A stretch of 64,000 bases of DNA from Desulfatiglandales bacterium (GCA_963666345.1 OY762721.1:2592001-2656000), one strand, 5' to 3'. Shown: positions 13,597 to 38,474, counted from the stretch's first letter. Notes: a model not told the origin generated them from the letters alone. Made by a program: numbers and translations.

Positions 13597-13635
13597 CTGC
13601 GTCTCTTTCAAACTTTTGTGATTGGATCGCAAGGA

Positions 13636-14864: not shown

Positions 14865-15034
14865 AGTTTATCCATAAATCAAGATTTATGGACTCACGCA
14901 ATCAGCTGTCAGTAGTCAGTAAAACACCCGGGATATCAAATTATTGGCTACTTGCTGATAGCTGCCGCTTGCCCGCCGCTAATGTGGCGGGGCTGAAAGC
15001 AGCATCCGGAAATGGTCCATTTCCGGATGGGACT
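14865..15034. mobile_element. MITE/REP-like palindromic element
   Basis: Imperfect terminal inverted repeats (AGTTTATCCATAAAT / ATTTCCGGATGGGACT), each end forming its own hairpin; internal CAGCTGTCAG/CTGATAGCTG arms. Confidence 0.45.
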
Positions 15035-15055
15035 AAATAAGTTCACACCGGACCC

Positions 15056-15847: not shown

Positions 15848-15863
15848 GGGCATGAGCCGATAT

Positions 15864-16658: not shown

Positions 16659-16674
16659 TATCTCGGCCAGTTTC

Positions 16675-16983
16675 TCATGTGCTTATTTCAAAATCCGTTT
16701 TTTCCTGTACGCTTTTTATCTTGTTTTTGAGCGCACCCTTCACCCCTTTTCTGATGTCAAATTTTACTGAAAGACTTATCCTGTCGGAGTCCTTCTCAAG
16801 GTTTCTGTAACATCTTGTGAGAAGAGCCAGAAGTTCGTCCCAGTCACCCTCCACGACAGTTCCCATGGGGTTCAGTCTGTAGTCCAGGCCGCTGTCCTTT
16901 ATTATGGAAACAGTGCCTGCAACATACTTGCTGAAGCTGGAGCCCTTATCAAGTGGAATCAGTGTGAATTCCATTAAACCCAT
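16675..16983 (-). CDS. MTH1187/YkoF-family thiamine-binding protein
   Basis: FTLIPL..G.SFSKYVA, SGLDYRLNPMGTVVEG, KFDIR, KIKSV. Confidence 0.85.
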   Translation of the reverse strand: MGLMEFTLIPLDKGSSFSKYVAGTVSIIKDSGLDYRLNPMGTVVEGDWDELLALLTRCYRNLEKDSDRISLSVKFDIRKGVKGALKNKIKSVQEKTDFEIST

Positions 16984-17239
16984 TTTGTTTCTCCTTTCTG
17001 TTCCGGTTACTTGTTTTCAGGAGGCTATGTATACTCCATCGGGCATAAGAAGAAAAGTCCTGAAACCGGTTTTTTATGGCCCGGGAATTAATATCCGAGA
17101 ATGCTTCAATAAAAGATGACATCCGAGCCATGATTTTCAGGGTCTGACGGAAAAATGGCATCTTGCTCTTGCTTTTGCTTGTCAAGGCATTAACTTTCTA
17201 TTTTTACTACTTAATTACGCATTCGCCGGGGGTCATTTT

Positions 17240-18157
17240 ATGATAAGTCTTTCTCAGTTAGAAGACATAAAACTGGTCACCATCCCAAGGTTTCAGGAGT
17301 TTATCGCAAGATTTTTTCTTGGGCCGAATTACAATTTCTTTTCAAAAGTGGATATACAAATAAGAGGGATTGAAAATATACCCAGGGACAGGACCGTCAT
17401 TTTCGCCATGAACCATACCGACAGGTACAACTACTGGCCATTTCAATATAAGTTATGGAGCTTAAGGGATTATCATTTCACCACGGTGTGGGTAAAGGCC
17501 GATTATTACAGAAACAGATTCCTTGCCGGGACACTTGATTTATGTAACATGATTCCCGTTCCAAACAGAAAATACCTGATACAGGAATATTTTACAGAGC
17601 GATTCGGAAGAAGAATGAAAAATGCGGAATACAACGCCCTAAAGGCAGGTGCTGAATCGGAAAGTGAGATTTCATCGACCACAAAAGAGATCTCGGCTCT
17701 GATTCGTGAAAATTTTATGAATTTTATTGCGGAGCGTTATAATGGCCTGATGGAAAAGGTCGCCCATCTGAGCAGAGAGGCCCTGCTTTTAAAGAACCTG
17801 AATCTCATTATTTTCCCTGAAGGCACAAGGTCCACAAGGCTTGGCTCCGGCAGGACCGGACTGGCTCAACTGGCCCTTGATACCGGGGCGCCTATCGTTC
17901 CCGTGGGGTGCAGTAACTGTCACAGGGTATATCCCGGGACCCTGCCCTTTGCAAGGAGCGGCAAGGTGGAATACCGGGTGGGCGAACCGCTTACCTTTGA
18001 AGGGGCCTTGAGCAATTACAGGATAGATGAGGGGTTCGACCTTTTTTCAGATGATTCAAGGGAAAGGTACAGGGAAAACTTCGAGTCCGTGACCGATCTC
18101 GTAATGCAGGCGATCAAGGGCCTTATTGATGAGGAACACAGAGACCGGGACGATTGA
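17240..18157 (+). CDS. Lysophospholipid acyltransferase (PlsC-like) family protein
   Basis: FAMNH, IFPEGTRS, PIVPVG motifs. Confidence 0.75.
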   Translation: MISLSQLEDIKLVTIPRFQEFIARFFLGPNYNFFSKVDIQIRGIENIPRDRTVIFAMNHTDRYNYWPFQYKLWSLRDYHFTTVWVKADYYRNRFLAGTLDLCNMIPVPNRKYLIQEYFTERFGRRMKNAEYNALKAGAESESEISSTTKEISALIRENFMNFIAERYNGLMEKVAHLSREALLLKNLNLIIFPEGTRSTRLGSGRTGLAQLALDTGAPIVPVGCSNCHRVYPGTLPFARSGKVEYRVGEPLTFEGALSNYRIDEGFDLFSDDSRERYRENFESVTDLVMQAIKGLIDEEHRDRDD

Positions 18158-18175
18158 ATATGCTCACAAGCATAG

Positions 18176-18919
18176 TCAACCGCCGAATGTGTCGGCGATC
18201 TGCTTTGCAATAAGACCTTTTACCTCTTTTTCACATTCTTTCCACTCAAGTTTCTTTTTTTCCGCTGTAATCTTAAACGTTGTCTCTATCTGTTTGTAAT
18301 TACTGCTGTCATTTATGTCCTGGCTCACTGTGGAGGAAGTCCCCTGTTTCAGCTCGGTTCTGGTCTCAGTAATTATGGGGGTGGCCCTTTTTTCAAGGAT
18401 TCTCAGGATTCCGTCCATTTCCAGCCTTCCCACCTTGACCAGACTGCTGGTCAGATCGGCCAGCGCCCCTGCCGCCACTCCGATGGCGGCTCCGGCGACT
18501 GCTGCGCCGGTGCCTTTTTGAGCACCTATAACCCCTCCTGCCACACCACCTACCACCGCCCCTGAATCAGGACTTCCCATGATTTCCCTGGCGGTTTTTT
18601 CACTGAAATTGCTTGTTATTACAACCTGGGCAATATATCTTGCCTCCCGGGGACGGACAATATTATAGCCCTTTTGCCTCAGGTCGTTTCGCACCTGATT
18701 CCATACCTCATCGCCTACCTCGAACCTTGACTGGTCCCTGATTTGAACCGCCACATCGTCTCCAGGCTCCGCCATCAGAAAGATCGGATCCGGATTGATG
18801 ACGTTTATGCGAAGGTCCTTGTACTCTATCTCCGTTCTGGCCGCATCCATCATGGAGCAGCCGCTCAGGCAGGCAAGAAACAGACAGGCAAGTGCCACGG
18901 CACTGATAATATATTTCAT
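18176..18919 (-). CDS. traT: TraT-like (complement-resistance) lipoprotein
   Basis: Lipobox LSGC, PIFL, KGY.IV, glycine-zipper GGVAGGVIG, TELKQG. Confidence 0.65.
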   Translation of the reverse strand: MKYIISAVALACLFLACLSGCSMMDAARTEIEYKDLRINVINPDPIFLMAEPGDDVAVQIRDQSRFEVGDEVWNQVRNDLRQKGYNIVRPREARYIAQVVITSNFSEKTAREIMGSPDSGAVVGGVAGGVIGAQKGTGAAVAGAAIGVAAGALADLTSSLVKVGRLEMDGILRILEKRATPIITETRTELKQGTSSTVSQDINDSSNYKQIETTFKITAEKKKLEWKECEKEVKGLIAKQIADTFGG

Positions 18920-18945
18920 GTCATTTTCTTCACTTTCTTTAAAGA

Positions 18946-20310
18946 CTAAGTTTTTTCAATCTCTTTTGAGATCGCCTCTCTTTTGAGTATATCATAATAA
19001 GTTAGTATCCTGTTTACATATCTTACCGGCTCGGTCCCCCTGCAGTATCCGTATCTGGTGCCGGTGTAATATCCGGGGTAGCTCAAAAGCGGCAGGATTT
19101 CCTCCATGGATGCCCAGTTATAAGGGTTGAGCCCTTTTTCCGTGGCGATTTTCTGTGCATCCCTTATATGTCCATGCCCTACATTGTAACTTGCAAGTGC
19201 AATAAGGAGTCTGTCCGGGTCCTGTGCCTTTTCGTAGCGGTCATAAAGTTTTCTAAGATAGTCGACTCCTGCCGTTATGCTCTGATCCGGATCTTTACGA
19301 TCCTCTATCCCCATCTCTTCGGCTGTTTTGCGGGTGAGCTGCATAATACCCTTTACCCCTGTATGGCTTTCCGCCTCCGGGTCGAGGTGGGATTCCTGAT
19401 ACGCAACCGCCGCAATCAGCCTCCAGTCAAACCGGTTCCTGCCGGATGCCTCCTTTATAGCCTCTTTATACCTTGGCAGCCTGGTATCCAGCCTTTGATG
19501 ATATTTTTTCAGGTCAAAGTAGTCGAAGATTTCAACATTATTGTAATATTTTTCATAGATCGCGGCAAAGGTCCCGTCTTTTTTTATCTTTTCAAAGAAC
19601 CTGTTTATCTCATCCAACAATTCCACGTTGCTTTTGTCGACCGCCCAGCCGAGAGATTGAACCTCTTCGAGCGGGAAGGCTATGCGAATGTCGGGATAGT
19701 AACGGCGATTCAAAAGGGCCACATTGGAATCCGCTACGGTTATATCTATCTCCTTATCAGCCACCATTCTTATCAACTCTTCGGTGGGGATGTCATCATA
19801 GAGCCTTATGTTTATGTCAAGACCCTGCCGCCTGAGTTGATTAAGCCTTTCTTCGTATGACGTACCCCTTCTGACGCATATGGTTTTTCCGGAAAGGTCC
19901 TTAATCGATACTGTATTGTAATCGGCGGCATTAACTATTACCTGTTGCTGCACTGTGAGGTATTCCCGGGAAAAATTTACATGCATTGCCCGTGACGGCA
20001 GAACGCTCATGCTGGCGGCAATGAAATCGGCCTCGCCCTGTTTAAGGGAAGGGATTAGGTCCGTCCAGGAAGTGCTTTTGATCCTCAGTTCCACCCCAAG
20101 GTGCCTGCTGAACGCCAGCGCGAGGTCATACTCAAAACCCATAGGCTCTTCCCTGTAATAGTAATAGGAGTGGGCATTATTCCTGGTGAGCATTGTTATC
20201 TCGCCGGAGTCTTTAATCCTCACCAAGGCCCCTTCTCTTGAACATGAACAGGGTATGAGCATAATGATCAGGATAAGCAAATGTATCCTGATAAAAAGAC
20301 CTGACTTCAT
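18946..20310 (-). CDS. mltF: Membrane-bound lytic murein transglycosylase F
   Basis: SBP-3 domain (GFEYDLA) plus SLT domain (AYQESH, GIMQLT, LASYNVG.GH..DA, YGYCRG.EP..YV). Start moved to MKSGLF. Confidence 0.9.
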   Translation of the reverse strand: MKSGLFIRIHLLILIIMLIPCSCSREGALVRIKDSGEITMLTRNNAHSYYYYREEPMGFEYDLALAFSRHLGVELRIKSTSWTDLIPSLKQGEADFIAASMSVLPSRAMHVNFSREYLTVQQQVIVNAADYNTVSIKDLSGKTICVRRGTSYEERLNQLRRQGLDINIRLYDDIPTEELIRMVADKEIDITVADSNVALLNRRYYPDIRIAFPLEEVQSLGWAVDKSNVELLDEINRFFEKIKKDGTFAAIYEKYYNNVEIFDYFDLKKYHQRLDTRLPRYKEAIKEASGRNRFDWRLIAAVAYQESHLDPEAESHTGVKGIMQLTRKTAEEMGIEDRKDPDQSITAGVDYLRKLYDRYEKAQDPDRLLIALASYNVGHGHIRDAQKIATEKGLNPYNWASMEEILPLLSYPGYYTGTRYGYCRGTEPVRYVNRILTYYDILKREAISKEIEKT

Positions 20311-22494: not shown

Positions 22495-23838
22495 TTACAC
22501 CCTTACGATTTGATATTTACTAAGCTTGTTGTAAAGCGTCTGTCGGTCGATGCCCAACTCACGGGCGGTAAGGCTGATATTCCAGTTGTTTTCATTGAGT
22601 ATTCTCTCGATATGCATTTTTTCCATCATTTTAAGGGATTTTGGCAACTCCCCCTGCCCGATATCCTTCCTAGAAAAGGGCAGGTCTTCGATGCTAATCT
22701 CGTTACCCCTTCCGATCACCAGGGCGCGTTCAATGATGTTCTCAAGCTCCCTGACATTTCCGGGCCAGTCATATTCGGTTAACAGCTTCAGGGCGGAAGG
22801 TGCGACCTTCAGCATCTCTTTATTCATCTCCAGACAGTATTTGTGGATAAAGGCTTCTACCAGCATAGGTATATCTTCCCGCCTTTCTCTCAAGGGAGGA
22901 ACGTGAATGGTAATTACATTAAGGCGATAGAACAGGTCTTCTCTGAATTTGTTTTCCTTGATGGCATTTTGAAGATTACGATTGGTTGCAGCCAGTATAC
23001 GCACATCCACCTTTATCTGATTTTCACCCCCCAGGCGTCTGAATTCCTTTGTCTGCAATATCCTCAAAAGATCCACCTGGGTTTTAAGGCTTATATCGCC
23101 TATTTCATCCAAAAACAGTGTCCCCTGGTCGGCCATTTCGAATCGGCCCTTTTTGGTATGCTCCGCTCCTGTAAAGGCACCTTTTTCATAACCGAATAGT
23201 TCACTTTCAAGTAGCGAATCGGGTAATGCTCCGCAACTTACTGCAATAAAAGGCATATAACAGCGTTGGCTGTTTCCATGGATGGCCTCCGCGATCAATT
23301 CCTTGCCTGTGCCGCTTTCACCCGTGATAAGAATCGTTGATTCGGTAGGCGCAACCTTATCGATCAGCTCAAAAATTTCCTGCATGGCATCGCTTCTTCC
23401 GATTATCTCATCGTACCTGTATTTTTCTTCCAGCTGCCTTCTCAGAAGGATGTTTTCGAGAATCAGTTCCTTATGGGCGACAATCTTTTTGACCTGCAGC
23501 TCTATTTCATCAGGATCAAAGGGTTTCACGAGATAATCAAAGGCCCCTTCTTTCATTGCCTTGACAGCCGTATCTACTGTTGCATAGGCGGTCATCATCA
23601 GCACTTCGGTTTCCCGGTTTATCTCCTTGAGCCTCTTGAGTGTCTCAAGGCCATCCATGCCAGGCATCTTAAGATCAAGCAATACGACATCCCACTTGTT
23701 TCCCCGGGCAACAGCTATAGCTTCCTCCCCACTTGAGGCAATCCCCACCTCATAGCCATCTTCCATGAGCCAATCCTTTAGGGAACCCCTTACGGAGGCT
23801 TCATCATCAACGACAAGAATTTTGGGATTTTTGGCCAT
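22495..23838 (-). CDS. Sigma54-dependent response regulator (NtrC/AtoC type)
   Basis: Receiver (VVDDE, DLKMP), GESGTGKE, ESELFG, GAFTGA, WPGNVRELEN, Fis HTH. Confidence 0.95.
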   Translation of the reverse strand: MAKNPKILVVDDEASVRGSLKDWLMEDGYEVGIASSGEEAIAVARGNKWDVVLLDLKMPGMDGLETLKRLKEINRETEVLMMTAYATVDTAVKAMKEGAFDYLVKPFDPDEIELQVKKIVAHKELILENILLRRQLEEKYRYDEIIGRSDAMQEIFELIDKVAPTESTILITGESGTGKELIAEAIHGNSQRCYMPFIAVSCGALPDSLLESELFGYEKGAFTGAEHTKKGRFEMADQGTLFLDEIGDISLKTQVDLLRILQTKEFRRLGGENQIKVDVRILAATNRNLQNAIKENKFREDLFYRLNVITIHVPPLRERREDIPMLVEAFIHKYCLEMNKEMLKVAPSALKLLTEYDWPGNVRELENIIERALVIGRGNEISIEDLPFSRKDIGQGELPKSLKMMEKMHIERILNENNWNISLTARELGIDRQTLYNKLSKYQIVRV

Positions 23839-24013
23839 TCTATTTTCACCTCCGATATCGCTTTTCCCGCAATGCCATTTCTTATGCCGGCCGGGAATTG
23901 CCCGAAAAGGCAGAGTTTCTAATTGAATTTTTCACTGCCCATGCATAAATACTTATTGATCCCGCTTGGTGAGAATCAAAAAGTTTTTGACGGCTACGGT
24001 TGATACACACTTT

Positions 24014-26080
24014 TTATTCTGCCACAGGCAGTCTGACAGTAAAGTCAGTTCCTTTTTCAGGGGAGCTTTCCACCGTGATGGCGCCATTGTGATATGTGAT
24101 AATCCCGTACACTACAGACAGGCCCAATCCGACCCCCTTACCCTCTTCCTTGGTCGTAAAAAAGGGCTCAAAGATGTTTTCAAGATCTTTTGCGGAGATA
24201 CCGCAGCCGGTGTCCGAAATCATTATTTCGAGGAAGTCGTTGTCTTTAGAGGGCCTCACATCCAGTGTGATGGTTCCCCCATGCGGCATAGCCTCCGAGG
24301 CGTTACTTATCAGGTTCAGAAAGGCCTGCTGCAACTGCTTGAAATCGCATTTCACCTTTGGCAGGTCTTTTTCAAAATTTTTGACAAGTTTGATTTTTTT
24401 CATCTCGAGATCGTGTGAAATAATGGCGATTGTTTTTTCTAGGATACCGTTAATGCTCTGTATTTCAAATGAAATGGGAGAGCGGCGGGAAAAGGCGAGA
24501 AGATTTTTCACAATTTCACCACACCTGGTTATCTCCGATTCCATGGTTTCCAGATACCGTGATATATCCTCGATCCTTTCAGGGGTAAACATGCCGCGAT
24601 CCAGGAGTTTCATCATTAATCGGAGATAGGTCAATACAGCGGTCAGAGGATTGTTTATTTCGTGGGCAATGGTGGCTGCCAATTTCCCCAGGGACGCCAG
24701 TTTTTCTGTACGGATGATCTGCTCTTTGGCCTTTTTCAGCTCATGATAGGCGGTTTTGAGATTTTCATACAGGTTCGCGTTATCCACCGCAACCCCTATC
24801 TGATTGCCGATTGCTGCGAGAAATTCCAGGTATTCAGGCGAAAATTTGAAGATATGGCTCGAGACACACATGACTCCCACTGATTTGCCTTTTGAGACAA
24901 GAGGGATATAGGCGGTAGACATAAGGCCCTCTCTCAGAAGAGCTTCCTTGTGTGGACTTTCCGCCTGAAGAAGGTTATCCATTATTTTCGTCTCTCCCGT
25001 GAGCACAGTCCCTCCGAGGAACCCTACCCCAACCTCACGGCTCTTGATGAAATCCTTGGCCACAAATTCCTCTGATAACCCCTTTTGCGCAAACAAGTTG
25101 AGGGTTTTCTTCCGTCTGTCCAGGAGGTAAATCCTGACGCTTTGAGATTCGGTGATTTCCAGAACTTTATCGACAGTGCTGCGAAGGACCTCGTCCAGTT
25201 TAAGAGAACTGCTAACCTCCATGGAGATTGAATTTAGGGTGGCGAGCCTTGCATTCTGCCTCTCTATCTGAAGCTGGAATTTTTTTCTCCCGGTAATGTC
25301 CCTAATGATGGTTACATAACCGCTGATATGTCCCTTTGCATCCAAAATAACATTTGAAGACAACAGCGCGTCAAATATGCGTGATCCTTTTCCTGAGAGC
25401 CTTGCTTCGAATTCTTTGACCACCCCGTTGCGAAGGGACATCTCTCGAAAACGTTTGAGATCCTTCTTTCTGACAAAAAGGGATCCACTGGAGTGAAGGG
25501 AAAGAATCTCCTCTTTGCTATTAAAACCAAGTAATTCGATTCCTGCGCTGTTGATATCAATAATCTTTTCCAAAGAATCGATCAGGATGATAGAATCACG
25601 GGATCTTTCAAAGATGGTCCTGTATCTTTCCTCAGATTTTTCCAGTTCCTTCAGGCGTGAAAAAAGAATTTGTTCTATGTTGTTTGTTGCCTTTTTTAGT
25701 TCCTGCTGTAAGTGCTTTTTCTGAGAAAGGTCTGTTGCAGTTTCAAGAGCGAACAGGATATCCCCCCTGTCATCTCTGACCGGAGTGGATTTAATGAGCA
25801 TTTTAGCCCTTCTGCCGTCTCTCATTTTTACGAATTCTTCATCCCAGTGCACTTTGCCGTCTTTAAAGGATTTTTTCACAGGGCATTTCTCACACCTTTT
25901 TCCCCGCTTTTTCCAAACGCTGTAGCAATAACTGTCAGGCTCGATTCCGAATTCATTTTTGAAAAGGTTATTCGCCATAATTATCCGGAAGTCTTTGTTG
26001 ATGGCTATCACGTAATCGGTAACACTCTCAACGAGCGCCTGGTATTCCTTCCTCCCGTCTGTTTTATCACCGATTTCCAT
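24014..26080 (-). CDS. PAS-PAS-GAF sensor histidine kinase
   Basis: AHEINNPL H-box, NLISNA, DTGCG, FEPFFTTK, GLGL; no TM helices. Confidence 0.92.
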   Translation of the reverse strand: MEIGDKTDGRKEYQALVESVTDYVIAINKDFRIIMANNLFKNEFGIEPDSYCYSVWKKRGKRCEKCPVKKSFKDGKVHWDEEFVKMRDGRRAKMLIKSTPVRDDRGDILFALETATDLSQKKHLQQELKKATNNIEQILFSRLKELEKSEERYRTIFERSRDSIILIDSLEKIIDINSAGIELLGFNSKEEILSLHSSGSLFVRKKDLKRFREMSLRNGVVKEFEARLSGKGSRIFDALLSSNVILDAKGHISGYVTIIRDITGRKKFQLQIERQNARLATLNSISMEVSSSLKLDEVLRSTVDKVLEITESQSVRIYLLDRRKKTLNLFAQKGLSEEFVAKDFIKSREVGVGFLGGTVLTGETKIMDNLLQAESPHKEALLREGLMSTAYIPLVSKGKSVGVMCVSSHIFKFSPEYLEFLAAIGNQIGVAVDNANLYENLKTAYHELKKAKEQIIRTEKLASLGKLAATIAHEINNPLTAVLTYLRLMMKLLDRGMFTPERIEDISRYLETMESEITRCGEIVKNLLAFSRRSPISFEIQSINGILEKTIAIISHDLEMKKIKLVKNFEKDLPKVKCDFKQLQQAFLNLISNASEAMPHGGTITLDVRPSKDNDFLEIMISDTGCGISAKDLENIFEPFFTTKEEGKGVGLGLSVVYGIITYHNGAITVESSPEKGTDFTVRLPVAE

Positions 26081-26317
26081 GTTTTATTCTTGAATTTGTC
26101 GAAAGGACTCTCTTATAAAAAAGAGTTTTGAGTTAACGAAGTATTAAGAATCGTATCTGATTTTGATAAATGAGCCTTTAAAAAAAACATCATTATTGCT
26201 GAAATTACAGCACAAAAGACATGGATGATCAAGCAGATAAACTTGTTCTACGGCAACTCGGATGGGAACGATCTCGGCGGTTAAGGGAACGGCCTTTGAT
26301 GAAAGGGAAATAGCCTC

Positions 26318-26347
26318 TTGACAAAAAGGGAAGATTGCTAGTATAAA
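26318..26347 (+). promoter_or_regulatory. Candidate sigma70 promoter of the hdr-flx cluster
   Basis: TTGACA with TG-n-TAGTAT or TATAAA downstream; spacing is not ideal. Confidence 0.4.
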
Positions 26348-26435
26348 CGTATGTTTTTATAACTATTTTATTATTTTTTCAGTAAGTTAAATCACATAGA
26401 TCACAAGCAAATGTTGCATATGATAGGAGGCACCA

Positions 26436-29400
26436 ATGAGTGTAAGCATGCCCGAAAGTGTTTGCGGTGCAGTAATGGTCGTTGGCGGAGGGATCGGCGG
26501 TATTCAATCGGCCCTTGACCTTGCTAATTCAGGCTATTATGTTCATCTTGTGGAAAAATCACCTGCGATAGGTGGGGCTATGTCACAGTTGGATAAAACA
26601 TTTCCAACAAATGACTGCGCAATGTGAATTATCTCGCCCAAACTGGTCGAGGTCGGCCGGCACTTGAACATCGAGCTTCATACCTGCTCCGAAGTTGATA
26701 ATGTTGAAGGGACGCAGGGTAATTTTCAGGTGACACTTCGCAAACACCCCCGTTTCATAGATCTTGAAGCCTGCACAGGATGCGGAGACTGCGCCAAGGT
26801 CTGCCCTGTGGTCAGGCCTAGTGAATATGACATGAAACTGGGTACTCGTAAGGCGGTTTACAAGCCTTATGCACAGGCTATTCCAGGTGCATTTGCAATA
26901 GAAAAGCTTGACAAGGCCCCATGCGGACTTGCCTGCCCCGCCAACCTGAATGTGCAGGGCTATGTGCAGATGGTTAAGGAGGGCAAGTATAGAGAGGCGG
27001 TCGAGATTATTATGAAGGATCTGCCTCTGCCGGGAGTACTTGGCAGGGTTTGCCCCCATCCCTGCGAAAAGAGTTGTCGGCGTCTTGAAGTCGATGAGCC
27101 GATTGCCATCCGTGAACTCAAGAGGGTCGCAGCCGATCAAGTCGATCTGGCGGATATCCCGGTGCCTGAAACCGCGACGCGTGAAGAAAGCGTAGCTGTA
27201 GTAGGTTCCGGTCCTTCAGGTCTGTCCGCGGCCTATTTCCTGGCCCTTGATGGGTATCAAGTAAGCGTTTATGAGGCTATGCCGGAAACAGGCGGAATGT
27301 TGCGGTATGGTATCCCTGAACACCGGCTTCCCAGAGATGTGCTTGATTCGGAAATAGAGAACCTCAAGAGATACGGCATCAAAATTTATACAAATACGCC
27401 TATAGGGAAAGACCTTACTCTGAAGGACCTGCGAAAAGGAGGAGCTCGGGCGATCTTTCTGGCTACGGGTGCCTGGAAAGGCCTTAAACTTAGAGTTCCC
27501 GGGGAGGGCCATTCTAAAAATGTTGAGGATGTTACCTCTTTTCTAAGGCAGGTTCATCTGGGAGAAAAAAGAGCGCTTCAAGGCAAAGTCTTGGTCATCG
27601 GCGGCGGGCACTCGGCCATAGACGCTGCTCGATTGGCGCTAAGGTTGGGAGCGGAGCAGGTCGGTATAATTTATCGCCGATCAAGCCGGGAGATGCTGGC
27701 TGAGCCTGAAGAGGTAGCGGAGGCTGAAAAGGAAGGAGTAAAAATCCATTATCAGGTAGCTCCCTTGAAGATTGAAAGTGATGGAGAGAAGCTTTCAGGG
27801 ATTGAATGTATTCGTACCCGCCTTACTCAAGCCGATACAACGGGAAGACGAAAACCTATTCCCATAGAAAGCTCGGAATTTTTTATCGAAACCGATTATA
27901 TAATCTCCGCCATCGGCCAGGAGCCGGATCTTGATTTTCTGGGTGAAGGCCATGCTCTTGAGGTTTCCAAATGGAAACTTCTCATGGTAAATGGTGAGAC
28001 CTTGCAGACGAATATCCCTGATGTCTTTGCGGGTGGTGACGTTATTACGGGCCCTGCCACGGTAATAGAGGCGGTTGAAGCCGGGAAGAGAGGCGCAAAA
28101 TACATCGCAAAATATCTGCAGGGCGAAGATCTTCCTGCAGAGTGGTCCGAAGAGCCGCCTATCGGTACGAACTGGACGGAAATCCGAGATGATGAACCAA
28201 CCAGGCACCGACTTAAAACGCCCAGCCTTGCTTTGAAAGAGCGCCTTTCAGGCTTTAAGGAGGTTAATCTGCTCGCAGATGAAGAAGAGGCCCGGAAGGA
28301 GGCGGAACGATGCCTTAACTGCGGTGGGTGCTGTGAATGTTATCAATGCGTGGAGGCATGCAAGGCAAAGGCATTAACATTTGAGACGCACTCCCAAAAA
28401 GGACAGTCTGTTAAGCTCGATGTAGGCTCTGTGATTTTGGCCCCCGGTTTTGAATCTTTTGATCCTAAGCGTTTTGCCACGTACGGATACACTTCTTATC
28501 CGAACGTGATTACAAGTATGGAGTTTGAACGGATCCTCAGCGCTACGGGACCTTTTCAGGGACACCTGCAAAGACCATCCGATAGAAAGGAGGTCAGGAA
28601 AATCGCATGGCTTCAATGTATCGGATCAAGAGAGATCAACCAATGTGATAACGCCTACTGTTCATCCGTCTGTTGTATGTATGCGATAAAAGAGGCCGTG
28701 ATCGCAAAGGAGCATGCCGGAAGCGATCTTGATGCGACTCTGTTTTTTATGGATATGCGTACCCATGGAAAGGGTTTCGATAAATATTATTCCCGCGCCA
28801 AAGATGATCTGGGGGTGCGATTTATACGTTCCAGAATTCATACCATCGATCCTGCAGGCCCCGGCTCAGATGATCTGAAACTTGTTTACGCCGACGACAC
28901 CGGCACACTTAAAAATGAAATTTTTGACATGGTGGTTCTCTCCACCGGGCTCGAGATTTCCCCGGAGTCAAAGGAACTGGCTAAACGCCTCGATGTCCAA
29001 TTGGATTCCGATGGATTTGCCGAAACGAGCAGCTTTTCTCCTGTCGCATCTTCAAGACCCGGAGTATTTGTGTGCGGTGCCTTTTGCGGGCCCAAGGACA
29101 TACCTCAGTCGGTAATGGAATCCTCCGCCGCCTCTTCGGCCTCTGCAGCACTGCTTGCAGCCGGCAGGAACACGCTAGGCAGGAAAAAGACCTACCCGGA
29201 AGAGATGGCGATAGGAGATGAGGAACCGAGGATCGGGGTATTTGTCTGCCACTGCGGTATCAATATAGCCGGTGTGGTAGATGTGCCTGCTGTGAGGGAT
29301 TACGCGAGGAATCTTCCCAACGTGGTTTATGCAGGCGACAACCTTTTCACCTGCAGTCAGGATACCCAGGGGGTTATCAAGAAGGTGATCAAGGAAAACA

Positions 29401-30908
29401 GGCTGAACCGAGTCGTGGTTGCCGCTTGTTCACCTCGAACTCACGAACCCCTCTTTCAGGAGACCATTCAGGAAACAGGCCTTAACAGGTACCTCTTTGA
29501 GTTTGCAAATATCCGTGATCAGGATTCTTGGGTGCATCAAAATGAGCCTGAAAAGGCCACTGAAAAGGCCAAAGACCTTGTTCGCATGGCCGTATCAAAG
29601 GCAGCGCTTCTGGAGCCTATCGAGCGATTGAGAATGGATATAAACCAGAGCGCTCTGGTAATAGGGGGAGGGATTTCCGGTATGAATGCGGCCCTTAACC
29701 TGGCGGACCAGGGTTTTAAAACTTATCTGGTTGAGCGGGCAGAAGAATTGGGTGGTCATGCGCTCACTGTAAGAAGCACCTGGAAGGGAGAAGATGTCGG
29801 GGCCTACCTGAAGGGGCTTTGCAGAAAGGTGACAGACCATGGCAATATCGAAGTGGTGCTGAATGCCGAAATAGCGGAAGTAAAAGGCTTTATAGGAAAT
29901 TTCACGACTTCTCTAAAGACCGATACAGGTGAAAGCTCAATTGAGCATGGGGCGATTATCGTTGCGACCGGCGCCGGGCCGTTTATTCCTGATGAATATC
30001 TTTATGGGAAGAGCGACCGGGTTACCATATGGCATGATATGATGGAACGCCTTGATGCCGATCCCGATCTGCTGGATAAGGCGGGAGCGGTTGCATTCAT
30101 CCAGTGCGTGGGCTCGCGAGAGCCTCAAAGGCCCCACTGCTCCAAGATATGCTGCACCGCATCCATCAAAGAAGCGATAGAGCTTAAAAAGAGAAAACCT
30201 GATCTTGATGTTTATATACTATATCGTGAGATCCGCACTTACGGCCAGAGGGAAAGGCTTTATCAGGAAGCCAGAAAGCTGGGAGTTATTTTCATCAGGT
30301 ACACTATTGATGAAAAGCCTGTGGTAGAGGAAATCGAGGAAGGGAAGAGACTTCAAATCACTGTTAAGGATCATATCCTTGGTTTTCCTGTTTCCATCAA
30401 TGTGGATTATCTGAATCTCGCAACGGCTATAGTATCGGAGGGTCAGGACAAGATATCCAGGATGCTCAAGATACCTGTCCATGAGGATGGCTTTTTCCTT
30501 GAGGCCCACATGAAGCTCAGACCGGTAGATTTTGCTACAGACGGCATATTCGTCTGCGGCCTGGCTCATTACCCGAAACCTATTGAGGAGTCAATCGCCC
30601 AGGCCCAGGCGGCCGCCGGCAGGGCAGCGTGTGTGTTGGTCAAGGAATTCATAGAGATTGAGCCTATAGTGTCGGTTGTTGATGAGGAGCACTGCATAGG
30701 ATGCGGTCTGTGCGAGGCGTCATGTCCTTTCGGGGCCATAAGGTTAAAAAAAGTGGAGGGCAAAGGCTTCAGGGCTGAAAATCTCTCGGCCCTATGCAAG
30801 GGCTGCGGGGTATGTGCGGCCGCCTGTCCGCAGAAGGCCATAGACATGAAACATTTTAGAGACAGCCAGATTTTCGCGGCCATAGAGGCGGGCGGGTTGA
30901 GTTTATAA
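26436..30908 (+). CDS. hdrA: HdrL-type large heterodisulfide reductase A (two HdrA FAD modules plus inserted GltD-like NAD(P)H module), selenoprotein, 1490 aa; Sec at TGA 26625-26627
   Basis: ORFs 26436 and 26664 are in frame. Read-through gives [24 protein letters not shown], where HdrA has CxxC. Also [29 protein letters not shown]. Confidence 0.92.
26643..26660 (+). promoter_or_regulatory. SECIS-like hairpin
   Basis: CTGGTCG-AGGT-CGGCCGG; loop G lies 24 nt after the TGA. Confidence 0.75.
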
Positions 30909-30980
30909 CCAGGGCAGGGTTTTTATCAGCCCGACCTGAACAGACCGGATATTTGTTGGAACCAAATTAGGAGATGTAAT

Positions 30981-31739
30981 ATGAGTGATACTTTTGAACC
31001 CAAGATCCTTGCGCTTCTTTGCAACTGGTGCGCTTATGCCGGTGCGGATCTTGCCGGGGTGAGCAGGATGCAGTACCCGCCGTCTATCCGCGTAATCAGG
31101 GTAATGTGCTCAGGTCGTGTCGACCCGCTTTATGTGGTAAACGGACTCAAAAGCGGATTTGATGCGGTATTTGTGTCCGGGTGACATATCGGTGAATGTC
31201 ATTACCAGGATGGTAATATTTATACCGCAAAAAGAACGGAAGTGGTAGCTCATCTTCTTGATATATCAGGTATCGGAAGCGACCGCCTGCAACTGAGCTG
31301 GGTAAGCGCGGCAGAGGGGCAGCTGTTTGCCCGGTACGTGACTGAATTCAGCGAAAAGATCAGGGAGCTGGGCCCCTTTAACAGAGAAGAGAATGGATTC
31401 AGGCTTGATGCCGTTGTCAGGACTCTGGACTCCCCGCGCATCCGTTGGCTCATGGGTATGACACGGGTGCTAACCGAGAGGGAGAACGTATACCATGAGA
31501 AGCTGAAGGAAGAGGACTACAACAAGCTGGTATCAGAGGCTACCAGGTCGGAGTACCACAAGGCCCTGCTGATAGAATCACTCGGAAAGGGGCCCAGGAC
31601 GGTTAGAGAAATGGCCGAAGATACCGGGCTTCCCGTCTATACTGTCTCTCAGCGTCTTAACGAGCTTGAAAGATCCGGTCAGGCAGAGCTGAAGGAATAC
31701 AACGGAACCACCCCGTTATTTGTCAGTACTGCGGCATGA
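30981..31739 (+). CDS. mvhD: MvhD [2Fe-2S] selenoprotein with C-terminal winged-HTH extension, 252 aa; Sec at TGA 31182-31184
   Basis: CNWCAYAGAD, RVMCSGRV, VSG-U-HIGECHY, WVSAAEG; ORFs 30981 and 31242 are in frame. Confidence 0.9.
31201..31217 (+). promoter_or_regulatory. SECIS-like hairpin
   Basis: ATTACCA-GGA-TGGTAAT; loop G lies 24 nt after the TGA. Confidence 0.75.
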
Positions 31740-31850
31740 TGTCTCTATACTTTTTGATTATGATATTTGATTAGGATAGTTGATCCCGATAAAGCGGGAA
31801 ATTATTGCATCTCGTATTCAGAATAATTATCAGCAGAGTGGGGAAAGTTA

Positions 31851-34800
31851 ATGGCAGACAAGAATGGTAAAACAGGTAGCGTAATGGTAGTAGGAGCGGG
31901 GATTGCCGGTATGCAGGCGGCTCTTGATCTTGCCACTGCAGGCTATTACGTTCACTTGGTTGATAAATCTCCTACAATCGGAGGGATAATGGCGCAGTTG
32001 GATAAGACTTTTCCAACTAACGATTGTGCCATGTGAATTATCTCACCCAAACTGGTCGAGGTCGGCCGGCATTTAAATATAGACATTATCACCAACTCCG
32101 AAGTCGAATCGCTTGAGGGAGAACCCGGAAACTTCAGGGCGACACTGATCAACCAGCCACGATACATTGATCCTGATGTTTGCACAGGTTGCGGCCAGTG
32201 CGCTCAGGCCTGTCCGGTTGACGGGGTCAACGACTATGACTGCGGGCTGGATCTCAAGGCAGCTACCTCCATAAAGTATGCCCAGGCTATCCCTCTTGCC
32301 TATTCCATAGACAGGGATCTGTGCGTGGGCTGCGGTTTGTGCGAGAAGGTCTGTCTTGCTCAGGCCATCCGCTATGATGACAAGCCCAGGAAAAGGGAAC
32401 TTGACATAGGGGCGGTAATACTGGCCCTGGGCAATGAGGTTTTTGACCCCGGAGTTCAGGATACCTACGGTTACGGCAAGTCGCCCAATGTGGTTACAAG
32501 CATGGAGTTTGAGCGGATTCTCAGCGCTTCAGGCCCGTTTATGGGTCATTTGATGCGGCCTTATGATCGTGAGGAACCGAAGAAAATAGCATGGCTTCAG
32601 TGTGTCGGTTCCCGCGACACGCATGAATGCAGCAATGCATACTGCTCTGCGGTTTGCTGCATGTATGCGATCAAGGAGGCGGTCATAGCCATGGAACATG
32701 CCAGGGGCGACCTTGAGTCCAGTATTTTTTTCATGGACATGAGGACCTATGGCAAGGATTTCGAGAGTTATTACGATCGAGCCAGGGAAGAACATGGGGT
32801 AAGGTTTATCAGGTCCCGTGTGCATACCGTGGAGCCGGTCGAGGATGAAAACCTCAGGATCAGATACATGGATGAGGGCGGGGAGCAGAAAAGCGAAATA
32901 TTCGATCTCGTGGTTCTCTCCGTGGGATTTCAGGTCGGCCGGGAGTCGATAGAGCTTGCCGAACGTCTGGGGATAGAGCTCAACAAGTACAATTTTTTAA
33001 AAACCGACAGCTTCAGCCCGGTGGCGACATCAAGGGAAGGCATATATGTCTGCGGCTCGCTTCAGGGACCCAAGGACATACCTCAATCTGTGATGGAGGC
33101 ATCAGCGGCCGCTGCGGCCTCGGAAGCCATGCTGAGCGAGAGCAGATGGAGCAAAACCCAGGTTCAGGAAATGCCGCCGCAGAAAAATGTGATAGGCGAG
33201 TCTCCCCGTATCGGAGTGTTTGTGTGCCAGTGCGGCATCAATATAGCGGGTGTGGTTGATGTGCCTGCGGTGCGGGATTACGCAGCCAGCCTACCATATG
33301 TAACCTATGTGGAAGACAATATGTATACCTGTTCACAGGATACCCAGGTCAAGATGGCCGAGGTCATAAAAGAGCAGGGTATAAACCGGGTGGTCGTGGC
33401 GGCCTGCACACCCAAGACGCATGAGCCGCTGTTTCAGGAAACCTTGATGAGTGCGGGGCTTAACCGCTATCTCTTCGAGATGACCAATATCAGAAATCAG
33501 GATTCCTGGGTCCATGGAAACGACCCTGTGGCGGCAACCGAAAAGGCCAAAGACCTTGTCCGTATGGCGGTGGCAAAGGCGGCGCTCCTTGAGCCGCTTC
33601 CCGACACGGAGCTTGAGCTTAATCCTGTGACTCTGGTCATAGGCGGCGGTGTGTCAGGCATGGTCTGCGCCGGAAACCTCGCAGACCAGGGCTATGAGGT
33701 CCATCTTGTGGAACGCTCCGGGGAACTGGGTGGTCAGGCCAACCTGCTCAATAAGACCTGGAAAGGGGAGGACATACAGGATTATCTGAAAGACCTAATT
33801 GATAATATTTCTTCCAGGCCGAATATACATGTCCACCTGTCGACGGAGCTGGTTGATGTAGAGGGGTTTGTCGGAAATTTCAGATCCGGACTCAAAAAAG
33901 AGGGACAGGAGGCGTTTGAACTTGAATACGGTGTTGCGGTAATCGCCACCGGGGGAAAAGAATATAAGCCTGATGAGTACCTGTACGGGAAGGATCCCAG
34001 GGTAATGACCCACCTGGAACTGGACAAAAGATTAGTTGAAGATGACCCCGGTCTGAAAGAGGTCAGATCAGCCGCCTTTATTCAGTGTGTAGGTTCCAGG
34101 GAGCCTGACAGACCCTACTGCAGCAGGGTCTGCTGTACCCACACCATGAAAAGCGCCCTTGAACTAAAACGCAGGGAGCCTGACAGGGATGTATATGTCT
34201 TCTACAGGGACATGAGGACCTATGGCGAAAGGGAGGATCTGTTCAGAGAGGCAAGGGAAGCGGGAGTCATCTTTTTCCGTTATGATCTGGACGGCAAACC
34301 TGATGTGACCGCGGGTGAAGATTCTCTGGAAATAGGAGTTCATGACCCGATACTTGACAGGCGTGTAATAGTAAAGGCTGATCTTTTAACACTTGCCACC
34401 GCTATCCTCCCTAACGAGGAGGATCAACTGGCGACATTCTTCAAGGTTCCTGTAAATGATGACGGCTTTTTCATAGAGGCGCATGCCAAACTGAGGCCTG
34501 TTGACTTTGCCACGGAAGGTGTGTTTTTATGCGGCCTGAGCCATTATCCAAAGCCGATCGATGAGAGTATCGCTCAGGCACTGGCAGCGGCTTCCAGGGC
34601 GGCAGGGCTTATTTCGACCGGCAAGGTCTATGCGGCCGGTACTGTCGCGTACGTGAATCCCATGGTATGCAGCAGTTGCGGGGTGTGCGTTGAAATCTGC
34701 CCCTATTCCGCTCCTTCCTTTGTGGAGGAGGGACGTTTTGCGGGAAGGGCACAGATAAATCCTGTGCTGTGCAAGGGGTGCGGGCTGTGCGTTGCATCCT

Positions 34801-34871
34801 GCAGGTCAGGGGCTATCAGTCTCAAGGGGTTTGACCAGGAACAGATCATGGCCATGATCGAAGAGATATAA
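31851..34871 (+). CDS. hdrA: Heterodisulfide reductase subunit A-like (tandem FAD modules), selenoprotein, 1006 aa; Sec at TGA 32034-32036
   Basis: TNDCAM-U-IISPKL; frame is stop-free from 32037 into ORF 32325; [16 protein letters not shown], ferredoxin motifs. Confidence 0.92.
32052..32069 (+). promoter_or_regulatory. SECIS-like hairpin
   Basis: Identical to 26643-26660; loop G lies 24 nt after the TGA. Confidence 0.75.
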
Positions 34872-35024
34872 TTATTAAAGGAAGTAAAAAAAAATGTTGA
34901 ATGGCTAAAACAAATATGGTTATTTGTTACGCAATTTGATATATGCAATTTGATTTATATTTGATGAATATGCGATTCGCCTAAACCATTTAACAAAATT
35001 ATTAATCAGATCCGGGAGATAAGA

Positions 35025-35456
35025 ATGGATAACTGGGAGCCTAAGATAACAAGTTTTCTTTGCAACTGGTGCAGTTACGGAGCTGCGGATCTTGCAGGGG
35101 TGAGTCGGTTTCAGTACCCCCCCAATTTCAGGATAATAAGGGTTCCCTGCTCCGGCAGGGTCAGTCCCAAATTTATCCTCGCGGCTTTCAGGCATGGCTC
35201 TGACGGGGTATGGGTGTCCGGGTGACACCCCGGCGACTGCCATTACCTGGAAGGTAATTATTATGCGAGAAGGAAATTCGCTCTTTTAAAGGGGCTGCTC
35301 GAACATGTCGGAATAGAGCCCGGCAGGCTGCATTTTTCCTGGATATCCTCTGCTGAGGCTACCAAATTTGTGGAGGTGGCCAAGGAGGTGGCGTCTGCCG
35401 TGAAGGAGCTTGGACCTGCAAAGTATCTAATCAAGAACAAGGCAGAGGTTGCGTGA
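35025..35456 (+). CDS. flxD: MvhD/FlxD [2Fe-2S] selenoprotein, 143 aa; Sec at TGA 35223-35225
   Basis: [40 protein letters not shown]...WISSAEA; the true stop overlaps the next start. Confidence 0.9.
35242..35258 (+). promoter_or_regulatory. SECIS-like hairpin
   Basis: ATTACCT-GGA-AGGTAAT; loop G lies 24 nt after the TGA. Confidence 0.75.
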
Positions 35457-36406
35457 TGCAAGGCTACACAGAGAAGATAAGGGAGACGGCAGAGAGGCTT
35501 TTGAAAGACGGTGTGGTGGAAGGTTTCATCGGGTACAGGAAAGGAACCGTTCCGATGATGAACGAACCTGTCCTCATAAAGGATGCTGATAAGGCCAAGG
35601 ATCTTCATTGGGACAGTTTCTGTGCGCTTAACCTGTGTAACTATCTGACCAAGAGGAAGGAAAAGCTTGGTGTGCTGGCTACCGGGTGTAATTCCAGGAA
35701 CATCGCCACCCACATAACCGAAAACCAGATAAGCCGTGAGCAGGTTTACATCGTGGGCGTGCCCTGCAGTGGAATGATAGATCACAGGGCGGTTGCAAGG
35801 GCGTTCAAGGGGAAAGACATCCTTGACGTGGAAGACAGGGGTGAGGAGTTCGTGGTCAGGGGCGAAGGGTTTGAAGAGACCCTGAAAAAGAAGAACTACC
35901 TTCAGACCAACTGCTCGGTGTGTAGGCACAGAAATCCCGTAATCCATGATGAACTTGTCGGAGAACTTGTGGATGAGCAGGTCGATGTCGATGCCTACAA
36001 GGATGTCAAGAAGATCGAAGAAAAGAATCCTGAAGAAAAATGGGATTTCTTTACTCAGCTCATCGGTAAATGCATCCGATGTTATGCCTGCAGAAACGCA
36101 TGCCCGCTTTGCTATTGTCCCACCTGCTTTGTGGATGAATCTAATCCCCAGTGGGTAGGAAAGAGCGTGGATTCGACAGACACGATGACTTTTCACCTGC
36201 TCAGGGCATACCATTGTGCCGGAAGGTGCACCGACTGCGGCGCATGCGAAAGGGCCTGCCCGGTCGGCATCCCTGTGAGGCAGTTTACGAAGAAACTCAA
36301 TAAGGACGCAGAGGAACTGTTTTCCTGGGAGGCGGGTTTGACGACAGACAGCAGGCCGCCTCTGGATGTATATCAACCTGATGATTACGATGAATTTATC
36401 AGGTAA
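35453..36406 (+). CDS. flxC: 4Fe-4S protein, FlxC/FdhB-like
   Basis: CIRCYACRNACPLCYC and HCAGRCTDCGACERACP motifs; position after flxD. Confidence 0.8.
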   Translation: MMQGYTEKIRETAERLLKDGVVEGFIGYRKGTVPMMNEPVLIKDADKAKDLHWDSFCALNLCNYLTKRKEKLGVLATGCNSRNIATHITENQISREQVYIVGVPCSGMIDHRAVARAFKGKDILDVEDRGEEFVVRGEGFEETLKKKNYLQTNCSVCRHRNPVIHDELVGELVDEQVDVDAYKDVKKIEEKNPEEKWDFFTQLIGKCIRCYACRNACPLCYCPTCFVDESNPQWVGKSVDSTDTMTFHLLRAYHCAGRCTDCGACERACPVGIPVRQFTKKLNKDAEELFSWEAGLTTDSRPPLDVYQPDDYDEFIR

Positions 36407-36444
36407 CAGGTATAAAGAAAATAAGAAGCAAATAGGATAAAAAA

Positions 36445-37482
36445 ATGACCGAAAAGATATACGGCAAGGAAGAGTGGGAGAGCGCTCTCAAGGGATTGAG
36501 CCGGAGTTACAGCCTTTATGTGCCTGTTAAAGAGGGAGACATTCATTTTTTCAGGGAATTCAAAGATGGTGTAAAGACGGCCTTTGATTTCGACAACACA
36601 CGGATGTCCGCCAAAGAGATCGTGTACCCTCAGACCGAGCGCATGTTCGACTACAATATCGATGCCGGCAGAGAGGATTCAAACGTATTAAAGGAGTCGG
36701 AAAAAGACTTTCCTCCCCAGGCTATTGTGGGAATAAGACCATGTGACGCCCATGCCTTTGTTCTGGTAAAAAGGAATTTCGACACCCCGGAGTTTCAGGA
36801 TCCCTGGTGGATCAAACGCTACGAATCCACCACCCTTGTCGGGCTTGGATGCAACGCGCCTTCGGCTACCTGCTTCTGCACGTCCGCAGGCGGTGGACCC
36901 TATAATGAACAGGGCCTGGACGTGATGCTTTACGATCTGGGAGATCGATACCTGGCAAAGGGGCTTACCGAAAAAGGCGAGGCCTTCCTTTCAAAGGCTG
37001 AGGGAGGGAGTGCCGTAACGGAAGCGGACCTGGATGAGGCCGGAAGGCTGGCAAGGGAATCCGAGGCGAAGATTACCCGCAAGGTTCCAACCGACAGGTT
37101 GAAAGAAAAAAAACAGCGTGAACTATTTGATGCCCCTTTCTGGGATGAGGTAGCCTTCGGCTGCATAAACTGCGGAACGTGCACCTTCCTGTGTCCTACC
37201 TGCTGGTGTTTCGACATCCAGGACGAGGTGCAGGGCAAAGAGGGTGTCAGGATGAGAAACTGGGACTCATGCATGTTTCCGCTTTTCACCCTGCACGGCT
37301 CCGGCCACAATCCCAGGGATGAAAAATACCAGAGGGTCAGGCAGAGATTTATGCACAAGCTCAAGTATTATGTGGACAAGTACGAGGACGGCATCCAGTG
37401 TACCGGTTGCGGAAGGTGCGTGAGATATTGCCCGGCCAATATCGATATCAGGCGGGTTTGCGAACTTATGAACAACTATTAG
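36445..37482 (+). CDS. flxB: 4Fe-4S protein, FlxB/AsrA-like
   Basis: RPCD, CFC, CINCGTCTFLCPTCWCF, WDSC, RFMHK, CTGCGRCVRYCP. Confidence 0.82.
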   Translation: MTEKIYGKEEWESALKGLSRSYSLYVPVKEGDIHFFREFKDGVKTAFDFDNTRMSAKEIVYPQTERMFDYNIDAGREDSNVLKESEKDFPPQAIVGIRPCDAHAFVLVKRNFDTPEFQDPWWIKRYESTTLVGLGCNAPSATCFCTSAGGGPYNEQGLDVMLYDLGDRYLAKGLTEKGEAFLSKAEGGSAVTEADLDEAGRLARESEAKITRKVPTDRLKEKKQRELFDAPFWDEVAFGCINCGTCTFLCPTCWCFDIQDEVQGKEGVRMRNWDSCMFPLFTLHGSGHNPRDEKYQRVRQRFMHKLKYYVDKYEDGIQCTGCGRCVRYCPANIDIRRVCELMNNY

Positions 37483-37563
37483 TTATGATTTGAGATTCGG
37501 GTCTTAAGTTTTAGGTCGACATCTAACGCTTAACACCTGAAACGACGAAAAGGGAGAGCGGCC

Positions 37564-38406
37564 TTGGAGAATCCATATTTGCCTTATCCTGTAAGGATAG
37601 AGGATATCACCACTGAGACAGAGGACAGAAATCTGAAGACATTCAAGTTTGTGTTTTTGGAATCTGGAGATGAGGAAAAATTTTCCTACACGCCCGGCCA
37701 ATTCGCCGAGTTATCGGTGCCCGGCAAAGGAGAGATACCTATCGGCATAGCCTCTTCACCCACTGAAAAGGGGCATGTATCCTTTACCGTCAACCGTGTC
37801 GGCCTTGTTACAACCCATCTTCACAACATGAAAGAGGGTGACGTAATGGGAATCAGGGGGCCTCTGGGCAACTGGTATCCCTGGGAACAGATGGAAGGTA
37901 AGAACGTGGTTATCATAGGCGGGGGATTTGCCTTTACCACCTTGCGTTCCAGCATCATATACATGCTTGACAAGAAAAACCGCGATCGTTTCAAGGATAT
38001 CATCGTGGTTTACGGGGCGAGGAGTCCCGGTATGCTTCTGTACAAGGATGAGCTGACCGAATGGGAAAAGCGTGACGACCTCAAGATGCATATAACCGTT
38101 GACGGCACGGATGATCCGGAATGGAAGTACAATATCGGATTTGTTCCGGCCATTACCGAGCAGAAGGTGACGAGTGCCGAGGATACCATAGCCCTTGTAT
38201 GCGGACCGCCTATAATGATAAAATTCACGCAGCCCGTGCTCGAAAAGCTCGGGTTTCCCCCGGAGAGGATAATCCTGTCCCTTGAAATGCGTATGAAATG
38301 CGGAATAGGCATATGCGGCAGATGCAATATCGGCGATCAGTACGTTTGTAAAGACGGGCCTGTGTTCTCACTGGCTCAGCTGAAACAGATGCCTTCCGAA
38401 TATTGA
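37564..38406 (+). CDS. flxA: FAD/NAD-binding [2Fe-2S] protein, FlxA/AsrB-like
   Basis: PGQF, RGPLG, GGG, YGARSP, CGPPIM, SLEMRMKCGIGICGRC, CKDGPVF. Confidence 0.85.
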   Translation: MENPYLPYPVRIEDITTETEDRNLKTFKFVFLESGDEEKFSYTPGQFAELSVPGKGEIPIGIASSPTEKGHVSFTVNRVGLVTTHLHNMKEGDVMGIRGPLGNWYPWEQMEGKNVVIIGGGFAFTTLRSSIIYMLDKKNRDRFKDIIVVYGARSPGMLLYKDELTEWEKRDDLKMHITVDGTDDPEWKYNIGFVPAITEQKVTSAEDTIALVCGPPIMIKFTQPVLEKLGFPPERIILSLEMRMKCGIGICGRCNIGDQYVCKDGPVFSLAQLKQMPSEY

Positions 38407-38431: not shown

Positions 38432-38474
38432 ACCCCCGGTGCGCAGGCGTTCTGCCGCACGCGGGGGTTTTTTT
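38432..38474 (+). terminator. Intrinsic terminator of the hdr-flx cluster
   Basis: ACCCCC..GTGCG/CGCAC..GGGGGT stem followed by 7 T. Confidence 0.75.

Follow-up and report, generated by a model that had tools for sequence, protein, structure and literature searches.

We found that a gene in a 64,000-nucleotide stretch of a Desulfatiglandales bacterium genome (GCA_963666345.1 OY762721.1:2592001-2656000, hereafter the window) encodes a long form of the electron-adaptor subunit MvhD, in which a complete MvhD domain with a putative selenocysteine is followed by a helical linker and a predicted winged helix-turn-helix. The long MvhD belongs, as an unexceptional member, to a family that has been recognised only recently. 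Its C-terminal extension is probably a protein-docking arm inside an HdrL/HdrA flavoenzyme complex, a reading that draws on the BamF subunit of class II benzoyl-CoA reductase and on the HdrA/HdrL gene context. The features on which the analysis rests are collected in Table 1.

Table 1. Features of the long MvhD gene, of its operon and of the bam-like cluster; positions are those of the window, except for the bam-like cluster, which is placed by its own locus.
Feature	Position	Strand	Remarks
hdrL	26436..30908	+	1490 residues; double HdrA with GltD/NfnB-like NAD(P)H insert; Sec64 (TGA 26625-26627)
Long seleno-MvhD gene	30981..31739	+	252 codons and TGA stop at 31737-31739
MvhD/FlpD domain, residues 9-131	31005..31373	+	Pfam PF02662
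Sec68, in-frame TGA	31182..31184	+	motif GUHIGECHY
Candidate SECIS apical stem-loop	31201..31217	+	7-bp hairpin; starts 19 nt past the UGA
Helical linker, residues 135-176	31383..31508	+	motif R-x-R-W-L-x-G ... N-V-Y-x-E-K; AlphaFold2 helices
Long helix and winged helix-turn-helix, residues 177-250	31509..31730	+	AlphaFold2, fold searches, sub-threshold Pfam
Second double-HdrA gene	31851..34871	+	1006 residues; Sec62 (TGA 32034-32036)
Short seleno-MvhD paralogue	35025..35456	+	143 residues; Sec67 (TGA 35223-35225); no tail
Three downstream genes	35453..38406	+	317/345/280 residues; two Fe-S proteins and a FAD/NAD(P)-binding [2Fe-2S] protein
Terminator-like site	38450-38466		after the three downstream genes
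bamBCDEFGHI-like cluster	L091 (G000:C1:738000-757900), ORFs 8295-19266	minus

With TGA read as selenocysteine (Sec), positions 30981-31736 translate into 252 residues, and codon 68 is the sole in-frame TGA among them. Under genetic code table 11 the gene is split into two ORFs, 30981-31184 and 31242-31739; as had been foreseen, the fusion becomes visible only upon Sec read-through, since ORF callers cut the gene at codon 68. The N-terminal part matches the Pfam FlpD/MvhD profile over its whole length (positions 1-123 of 123; E 2.4e-49; 166.9 bits versus a cut-off of 22.3). Its cysteine set (Cys14, Cys17, Cys43, Sec68 and Cys73) matches the conserved MvhD set; Cys43 and Cys73 are invariant in our alignments, and position 68 is either Cys or TGA among the relatives. 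Sequence matches of this domain in the PDB were 5odc_D, 8rvu_F and 7bkb_F (E 2e-45 to 1e-42), and the top four Foldseek matches of the whole model were MvhD chains of solved Hdr complexes, with a TM to the target of 0.86-0.91. NCBIfam returned MvhD-type domains and weak HTH models only. The gene product is predicted to act as an electron adaptor of the [2Fe-2S] type, with selenocysteine as residue 68.

Past the MvhD domain lies a C-terminal extension of ~118 residues. AlphaFold2 modelled the full protein, from a 69-row alignment, with pLDDT 91.0 and pTM 0.89, and the tail by itself with pLDDT 95.5. The modelled tail comprises helices 135-149, 152-159, 161-165, 177-201, 208-215 and 219-231, followed by a beta hairpin of strands 235-241 and 244-249, so that residues ~177-250 are confidently predicted to form a winged helix-turn-helix. 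At least ten winged-helix Pfam families matched residues 193-244, every one under its cut-off; the best were HTH_20 (21.6 bits), MarR_2 (20.0) and HTH_5 (19.2) versus 22. For HTH_5 (PF01022), this hmmscan score of 19.2 bits rose in a six-frame search to 22.1, a borderline value relative to the cut-off of 22. The best PDB matches of the tail in Foldseek were all winged-helix proteins (NolR, Zalpha, BigR, CzrA and SmtB, E 3e-3 to 4e-2), Zalpha aligning at TM 0.88 and an rmsd of 1.6 over 63 columns, and VIA-align gave Z 9.6 for 1ku9, then 9.5, 9.2 and 9.1 for 5jbr, 4nb5 and 5bpd. The closest structural matches are mostly DNA-binding regulators, and winged helices that do not bind DNA (cullin WHB, RPC62 and TFE-alpha) are also among the matches. 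By sequence, no PDB chain covered the tail (138-252) except for a marginal 66-residue match, 9sgv_A (E 0.029). Pfam, AlphaFold2, Foldseek and VIA-align thus agree on a seleno-MvhD followed by a helical linker and an ArsR/MarR-like winged helix-turn-helix. Together with the paralogue at 35025-35456, which ends after 143 residues and indeed lacks the tail, they confirm the domain arrangement of the original prediction.

Decoding of codon 68 as selenocysteine is plausible from the alignments and the gene content of the organism. Of 17 aligned homologues, 15 have Cys opposite the TGA and the remaining two have W. Among 35 distinct full-length relatives (loci fetched twice were merged and two partial ones dropped), nine carry TGA at aligned position 68, 12 carry it at aligned position 17 (CxxU) instead, and 14 have Cys at position 68 and no in-frame stop; wherever an in-frame stop occurs in these relatives, it is TGA. 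In the genome, selA scores 608.9 bits, selB 393.8 bits and selD 372 bits, each over its cut-off. The selD match (G000:C1:620342-621268) itself holds one in-frame TGA, so the SelD of this organism is probably a selenoprotein. The candidate SECIS hairpin past codon 68 has a folding-energy z of -1.25, which is not significant, and a similar hairpin lies 3' of the UGA at 35223. Each of the three further in-frame TGAs of the operon, those of the two double-HdrA genes and of the short paralogue (Table 1), is likewise followed by a small hairpin ~18-19 nt downstream. The hairpins past all four operon UGAs fold no better than shuffled sequences (z -0.46 to -1.25), and an Rfam scan of 26000-36000 at E ≤ 1 returned no family, hence no curated SECIS match. 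Sec64 of HdrL and Sec62 of the second double HdrA both lie in NDCAMU, a CxxU motif.

The end of hdrL lies 72 nt upstream of the long MvhD gene and the start of the second double-hdrA gene 112 nt downstream of it. We presume that the MvhD domain pairs with HdrL, and the second double HdrA is a candidate partner of the winged-helix arm. Divergently from hdrL, on the minus strand at 22495-26080, are encoded a PAS-PAS-GAF histidine kinase and a sigma-54-dependent response regulator. The intergenic region upstream of hdrL shows a TTGACA box at ~26318. TGGCAC-N5-TTGC, which we take to be the sigma-54 motif, had 45 matches in the window with up to two mismatches versus 53 expected, none of them in the 355-nt region 26081-26435.

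A search with residues 135-252 matched 200 of 237 candidate clusters, and the tail, for whose fusion to MvhD the original prediction had proposed a survey, proved to be a conserved module of long MvhD proteins. Among the 120 matches listed, 15 are full length (252-259 residues) and the majority are 146-170-residue fragments beginning past the Sec codon; because gene callers cut at this codon and leave mostly fragments, annotation hardly shows the long MvhD family. Some public entries are misnamed as DprA/Smf, ArsR family regulator or NtrC family response regulator. An exhaustive search of representatives at 50% identity gave 129 clusters with the tail. FlpD is present in 30 of the 31 representatives of at least 200 residues and absent from ten short ones (114-134 residues); tail-bearing fusions among the representatives comprise one HdrA-MvhD-tail protein of 810 residues and two Fer4-MvhD-tail proteins. 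A tail HMM was positive at E ≤ 1e-5 in 152 of 401 sampled genomes of the phylum, an upper bound for the family, as BamF-type tails, and perhaps other winged helices, are among the weaker matches; at E ≤ 1.1e-20 it found 66 places in the 401 genomes. A set of 20 contig loci (from Roseomonas, Bradyrhizobium and others) was discarded as chance matches that cover only tail residues 1-24 or 1-57.

The gene order around the module is conserved. In 19 of 20 related loci the long MvhD gene sits between two large HdrA-type genes; these loci, from 16 genomes, are the strongest matches with enough flank and thus a sample of kin, not a random one. The exception, L060, lacks a neighbouring HdrA gene. Seven loci share with the window a GltD insert in the upstream gene, five have the insert in the downstream gene, and in another seven neither neighbour has it; given this variation, one partner domain cannot account for all loci. 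Five downstream "HdrA_N+GltD" proteins that appeared as single ORFs were rejected, L070 and L072 each containing a real stop, and all five were left out of the alignment. In all six further loci (L092-L097; genomes G094, G083, G045, G025, G249 and G241), a gene of its own encodes the tail, immediately 5' of an hdrL of the GltD type. These separate genes encode ~126-128 residues (126 and 128 in the two ORFs read) and are followed by hdrL after a 12-nt gap, as judged from one junction read base by base. At L097 4857-4872 a TAG is followed by 12 nt with a Shine-Dalgarno-like GGAAAGGAAAG and then by the in-frame ATG of hdrL. An apparent tail-HdrL fusion in G241, an open frame of 1626 aa, was rejected since a TAG stop and 12 nt part two genes. 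At one locus HdrC- and HdrB-like ORFs, recognised by eye from CCG and Fe-S cysteine motifs, precede the separate tail gene, which is therefore not the first of its operon. Taken over the 19 of 20 fused and six of six separate loci, the start of an HdrA-type gene almost always comes next after the tail. We also noted in one relative, at L066 12752-15208 (minus strand), a second, divergent tail (24% identity) that ends a fused HdrA-MvhD protein; this gene is near NuoE/NuoF-like genes (17049-17998) and upstream of a double-HdrA/long-MvhD/double-HdrA set.

The most telling relative is a paralogue in the same genome, which encodes eight MvhD domains. One of them belongs to a BamF-like protein of 255 residues that has its TGA at codon 19 (CHWU) and matches HTH_5 with 36.8 bits, over the Pfam cut-off. 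Its cluster runs in the order AOR-type enzyme (668 aa), Fer4 protein (183), CCG protein (383), double HdrA (963+), MvhD with HTH_5, NuoE-like protein, NuoF-like protein and Fer2_4+Fer4 protein (196). The order is that of bamBCDEFGHI, and the complete set suggests a class II benzoyl-CoA reductase and, with it, anaerobic breakdown of aromatic compounds. BLASTP aligned the BamF-like paralogue with the window protein at 35% identity over 237 residues, up to residue 233, and the tail HMM matched it with E 7.2e-7. For BamF of Geobacter metallireducens, a cryo-EM preprint (bioRxiv 10.64898/2026.04.10.717634) states that its winged helix-turn-helix "interfaces with BamI" in the class II benzoyl-CoA reductase, that BamF is more than 100 residues longer than other MvhD adaptors, and that it ties BamE to BamGHI in this tungsten enzyme, BamBCDEFGHI (coordinates PDB 29QY, 29RC and 29RN). 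An ArsR-like signature is thus compatible with protein contact, given the HTH_5 score of the BamF-like paralogue and the protein contact of the Geobacter BamF winged helix.

BamF is, like the window protein, described as a selenoprotein in which a C-terminal extension, over 100 residues long and with a winged helix at its end, follows the MvhD domain, and both genes stand directly after a fused double-HdrA gene and before the gene of another redox module. The two differ in their surroundings, the window gene being flanked by HdrL and a double HdrA instead of BamE and BamGHI, with no adjacent AOR-type or NuoEFG-like genes. They also differ in the position of selenocysteine, which is at 68 (GUHxGxCHY) in the window protein and at 19 (CxxU) in BamF, where the window protein has the equivalent Cys17. 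The BamF-type homology of the window tail was established with the BamF-like paralogue of the same genome. Short MvhD/VhuD subunits of the Mvh/Vhu-Hdr, Fdh-Hdr and Elp-Hdr complexes (5odc_D, 7bkb_F, 8rvu_F and 9sfi_K) align end to end with residues 1-137 (E 2e-45 to 3e-29) and share the conserved Cys set and the fold of the window MvhD domain, but these chains, of 129-141 residues, lack the extension. HdrL-MvhD pairs have been described in other organisms: in Desulfobacterium autotrophicum HRM2, HdrL is followed by mvhD, with selenocysteine, at a tandem hdrL/hdrA locus (PMC2702500), and the proteome of Syntrophobacter was found to include an HdrL-MvhD set (PMC5947623). As far as these descriptions go, the pairs of D. 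autotrophicum HRM2 and Syntrophobacter fumaroxidans resemble the window pair in that a large HdrA/glutamate-synthase fusion (HdrL) precedes mvhD and both contain selenocysteine; the pertinent passages of the two papers do not mention a winged-helix extension of MvhD.

These observations bear on what the tail does. The original prediction held that the [2Fe-2S]/Sec subunit may couple electron flow through HdrL, or selenium supply, to DNA binding. On such a reading the winged helix would recognise operator DNA near the hdr genes, under the control of the cluster and Sec state or of read-through. The fold itself argues for such a regulator: it is a genuine ArsR/MarR-like one, shared, with Z up to 9.6, with ArsR/SmtB and MarR proteins (PF01022 and PF12802; NolR 4omz, BigR 3pqk, CzrA 1r1u and 1ku9), along with the hydrophobic pattern of helix 2, helix 3 and the wing. 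In addition, Y220, S223 and R225 of the recognition helix are invariant in close homologues, the stand-alone tail genes lie 5' of hdrL as arsR-type autoregulators do in their own operons, and the nearest ESM Atlas clusters, which resemble these stand-alone forms, carry HTH_5 and are in some cases auto-named ArsR regulators. However, the window tail, besides staying below the Pfam cut-offs and being tethered to an Fe-S subunit, is acidic. Its 66-residue winged helix has a net charge of -2 and a pI of 5.3, whereas nine of the ten other HTH_5-type matches in the genome, the BamF-like tail (+2) included, are at +2 to +8. In the family the charge of this domain has a median of 0 and ranges from -5 to +11 (69 members), so that some tails are basic, a point against the docking reading. 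Across the same 69 sequences, neither the first half of the recognition helix (helix 3) nor the wing has a conserved basic position. In helix 3 only the hydrophobic core residues V222, L226 and L229 are conserved, plus R231 at its end, which is the sole basic column (≥ 60% K/R) of helix 3 or wing; the wing tip has the consensus E/D-G-x-x-P, and position 241 is 64% D/E. The best-conserved tail positions, R155, W156, G159, N169, V170, Y171, E191, V208 and P245, fall instead in the linker motif and the core.

The three intergenic regions that the original prediction singled out, 26081-26435, 31740-31850 and 34872-35024, contain no operator-like palindrome and no sigma-54 motif; the only inverted repeats are two AT-rich palindromes of 11-12 nt, at 26108-26123 and 34933-34950, and 31740-31850 has none. 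Moreover, a conventional sensor kinase and sigma-54 response regulator are already encoded divergently upstream, and the module also ends HdrA-MvhD enzymes of 810-867 residues. The proposed dependence on selenium holds in the trivial sense that the helix-turn-helix is only made if the UGA is decoded, but it is not a conserved link, as 14 of the 35 relatives have Cys without a TGA and another 12 place their TGA at position 17. With the BamF winged helix contacting BamI, according to the preprint cited above, and with the module an integral and conserved component of HdrA/HdrL gene clusters, a regulator of this kind is very unlikely, and the coupling of electron flow or selenium supply to DNA binding is not supported. 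We give equally little credence to a moonlighting role, in which long MvhD, when unassembled or changed in redox state, or the stand-alone tails would adjust hdr operon expression by binding DNA or RNA; were it true, an enzyme subunit would let gene expression follow the state of an electron-bifurcating complex.

A winged helix could also serve as a site for a small protein substrate or effector, such as DsrC, TusA or a ferredoxin, or act allosterically as DsrD does on DsrAB. DsrD, a winged-helix protein of sulfate reducers long suspected of binding DNA, binds it non-specifically and is an allosteric activator of DsrAB, according to PMC8794893. It is thus a small Zalpha-like winged helix that looks DNA-binding and works via a redox enzyme, and Zalpha is also a top match of the window tail; unlike the tail, DsrD is a free protein of 78 residues that acts on DsrAB, and the likeness is one of fold and description. 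A carrier site would also suit the proposal (PMC5947623) that HdrL complexes reduce DsrC, and the finding that the window operon encodes no HdrB/HdrC-type module. However, none of the 26 loci examined has a conserved carrier gene beside the module, the conserved neighbour always being an HdrA-type gene, and the BamF arm, as the preprint describes it, holds a fixed subunit; we consider this explanation unlikely. Still less probable is that the tail merely stabilises the MvhD fold or the solubility of the subunit, as an appendage packed on its own MvhD domain and without a partner. The full-length pTM of 0.89 suggests a fixed tail-MvhD arrangement in the model, and the best-conserved residues, being in the linker, could pack on MvhD. 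Against this, the module also exists as a separate gene adjoining hdrL, short MvhDs such as the one at 35025 fold and function without a tail, and a specific role is suggested by its conservation across 152 of the 401 genomes.

We therefore return to the docking arm as the probable function of the extension, which agrees with the fallback of the original prediction, that the helix-turn-helix could be a structural domain; the BamF precedent and the HdrA/HdrL gene context both speak for it. The complex in question would be a large cytoplasmic HdrL/HdrA assembly for flavin-based electron bifurcation or confurcation. In it, the MvhD domain would be seated on the upstream double HdrA, HdrL, as MvhD is on HdrA in solved complexes, and the winged-helix arm would hold a second module. 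The gene order and the analogy with BamF lead us to infer a protein contact for the arm and also its partner: most likely the double HdrA encoded immediately downstream or, alternatively, the NAD(P)H-binding GltD-like insert of HdrL. The arm would act much as BamF does in bridging BamE and BamGHI, and not as a transcription factor.

For the window, the analysis yields a corrected annotation together with a hypothesis on the partner that can be tested, and no new kind of system. For the family, public gene calls are mostly cut at the Sec codon, and the tail is easily mislabelled as a "transcription factor". If the arm does tie HdrL to the second double HdrA, operons that are common in sulfate reducers and syntrophs would give rise to coupled bifurcation machines resembling that recently described for benzoyl-CoA reductase, and this would bear on how electrons move between NAD(P)H, ferredoxin and further acceptors in these organisms.
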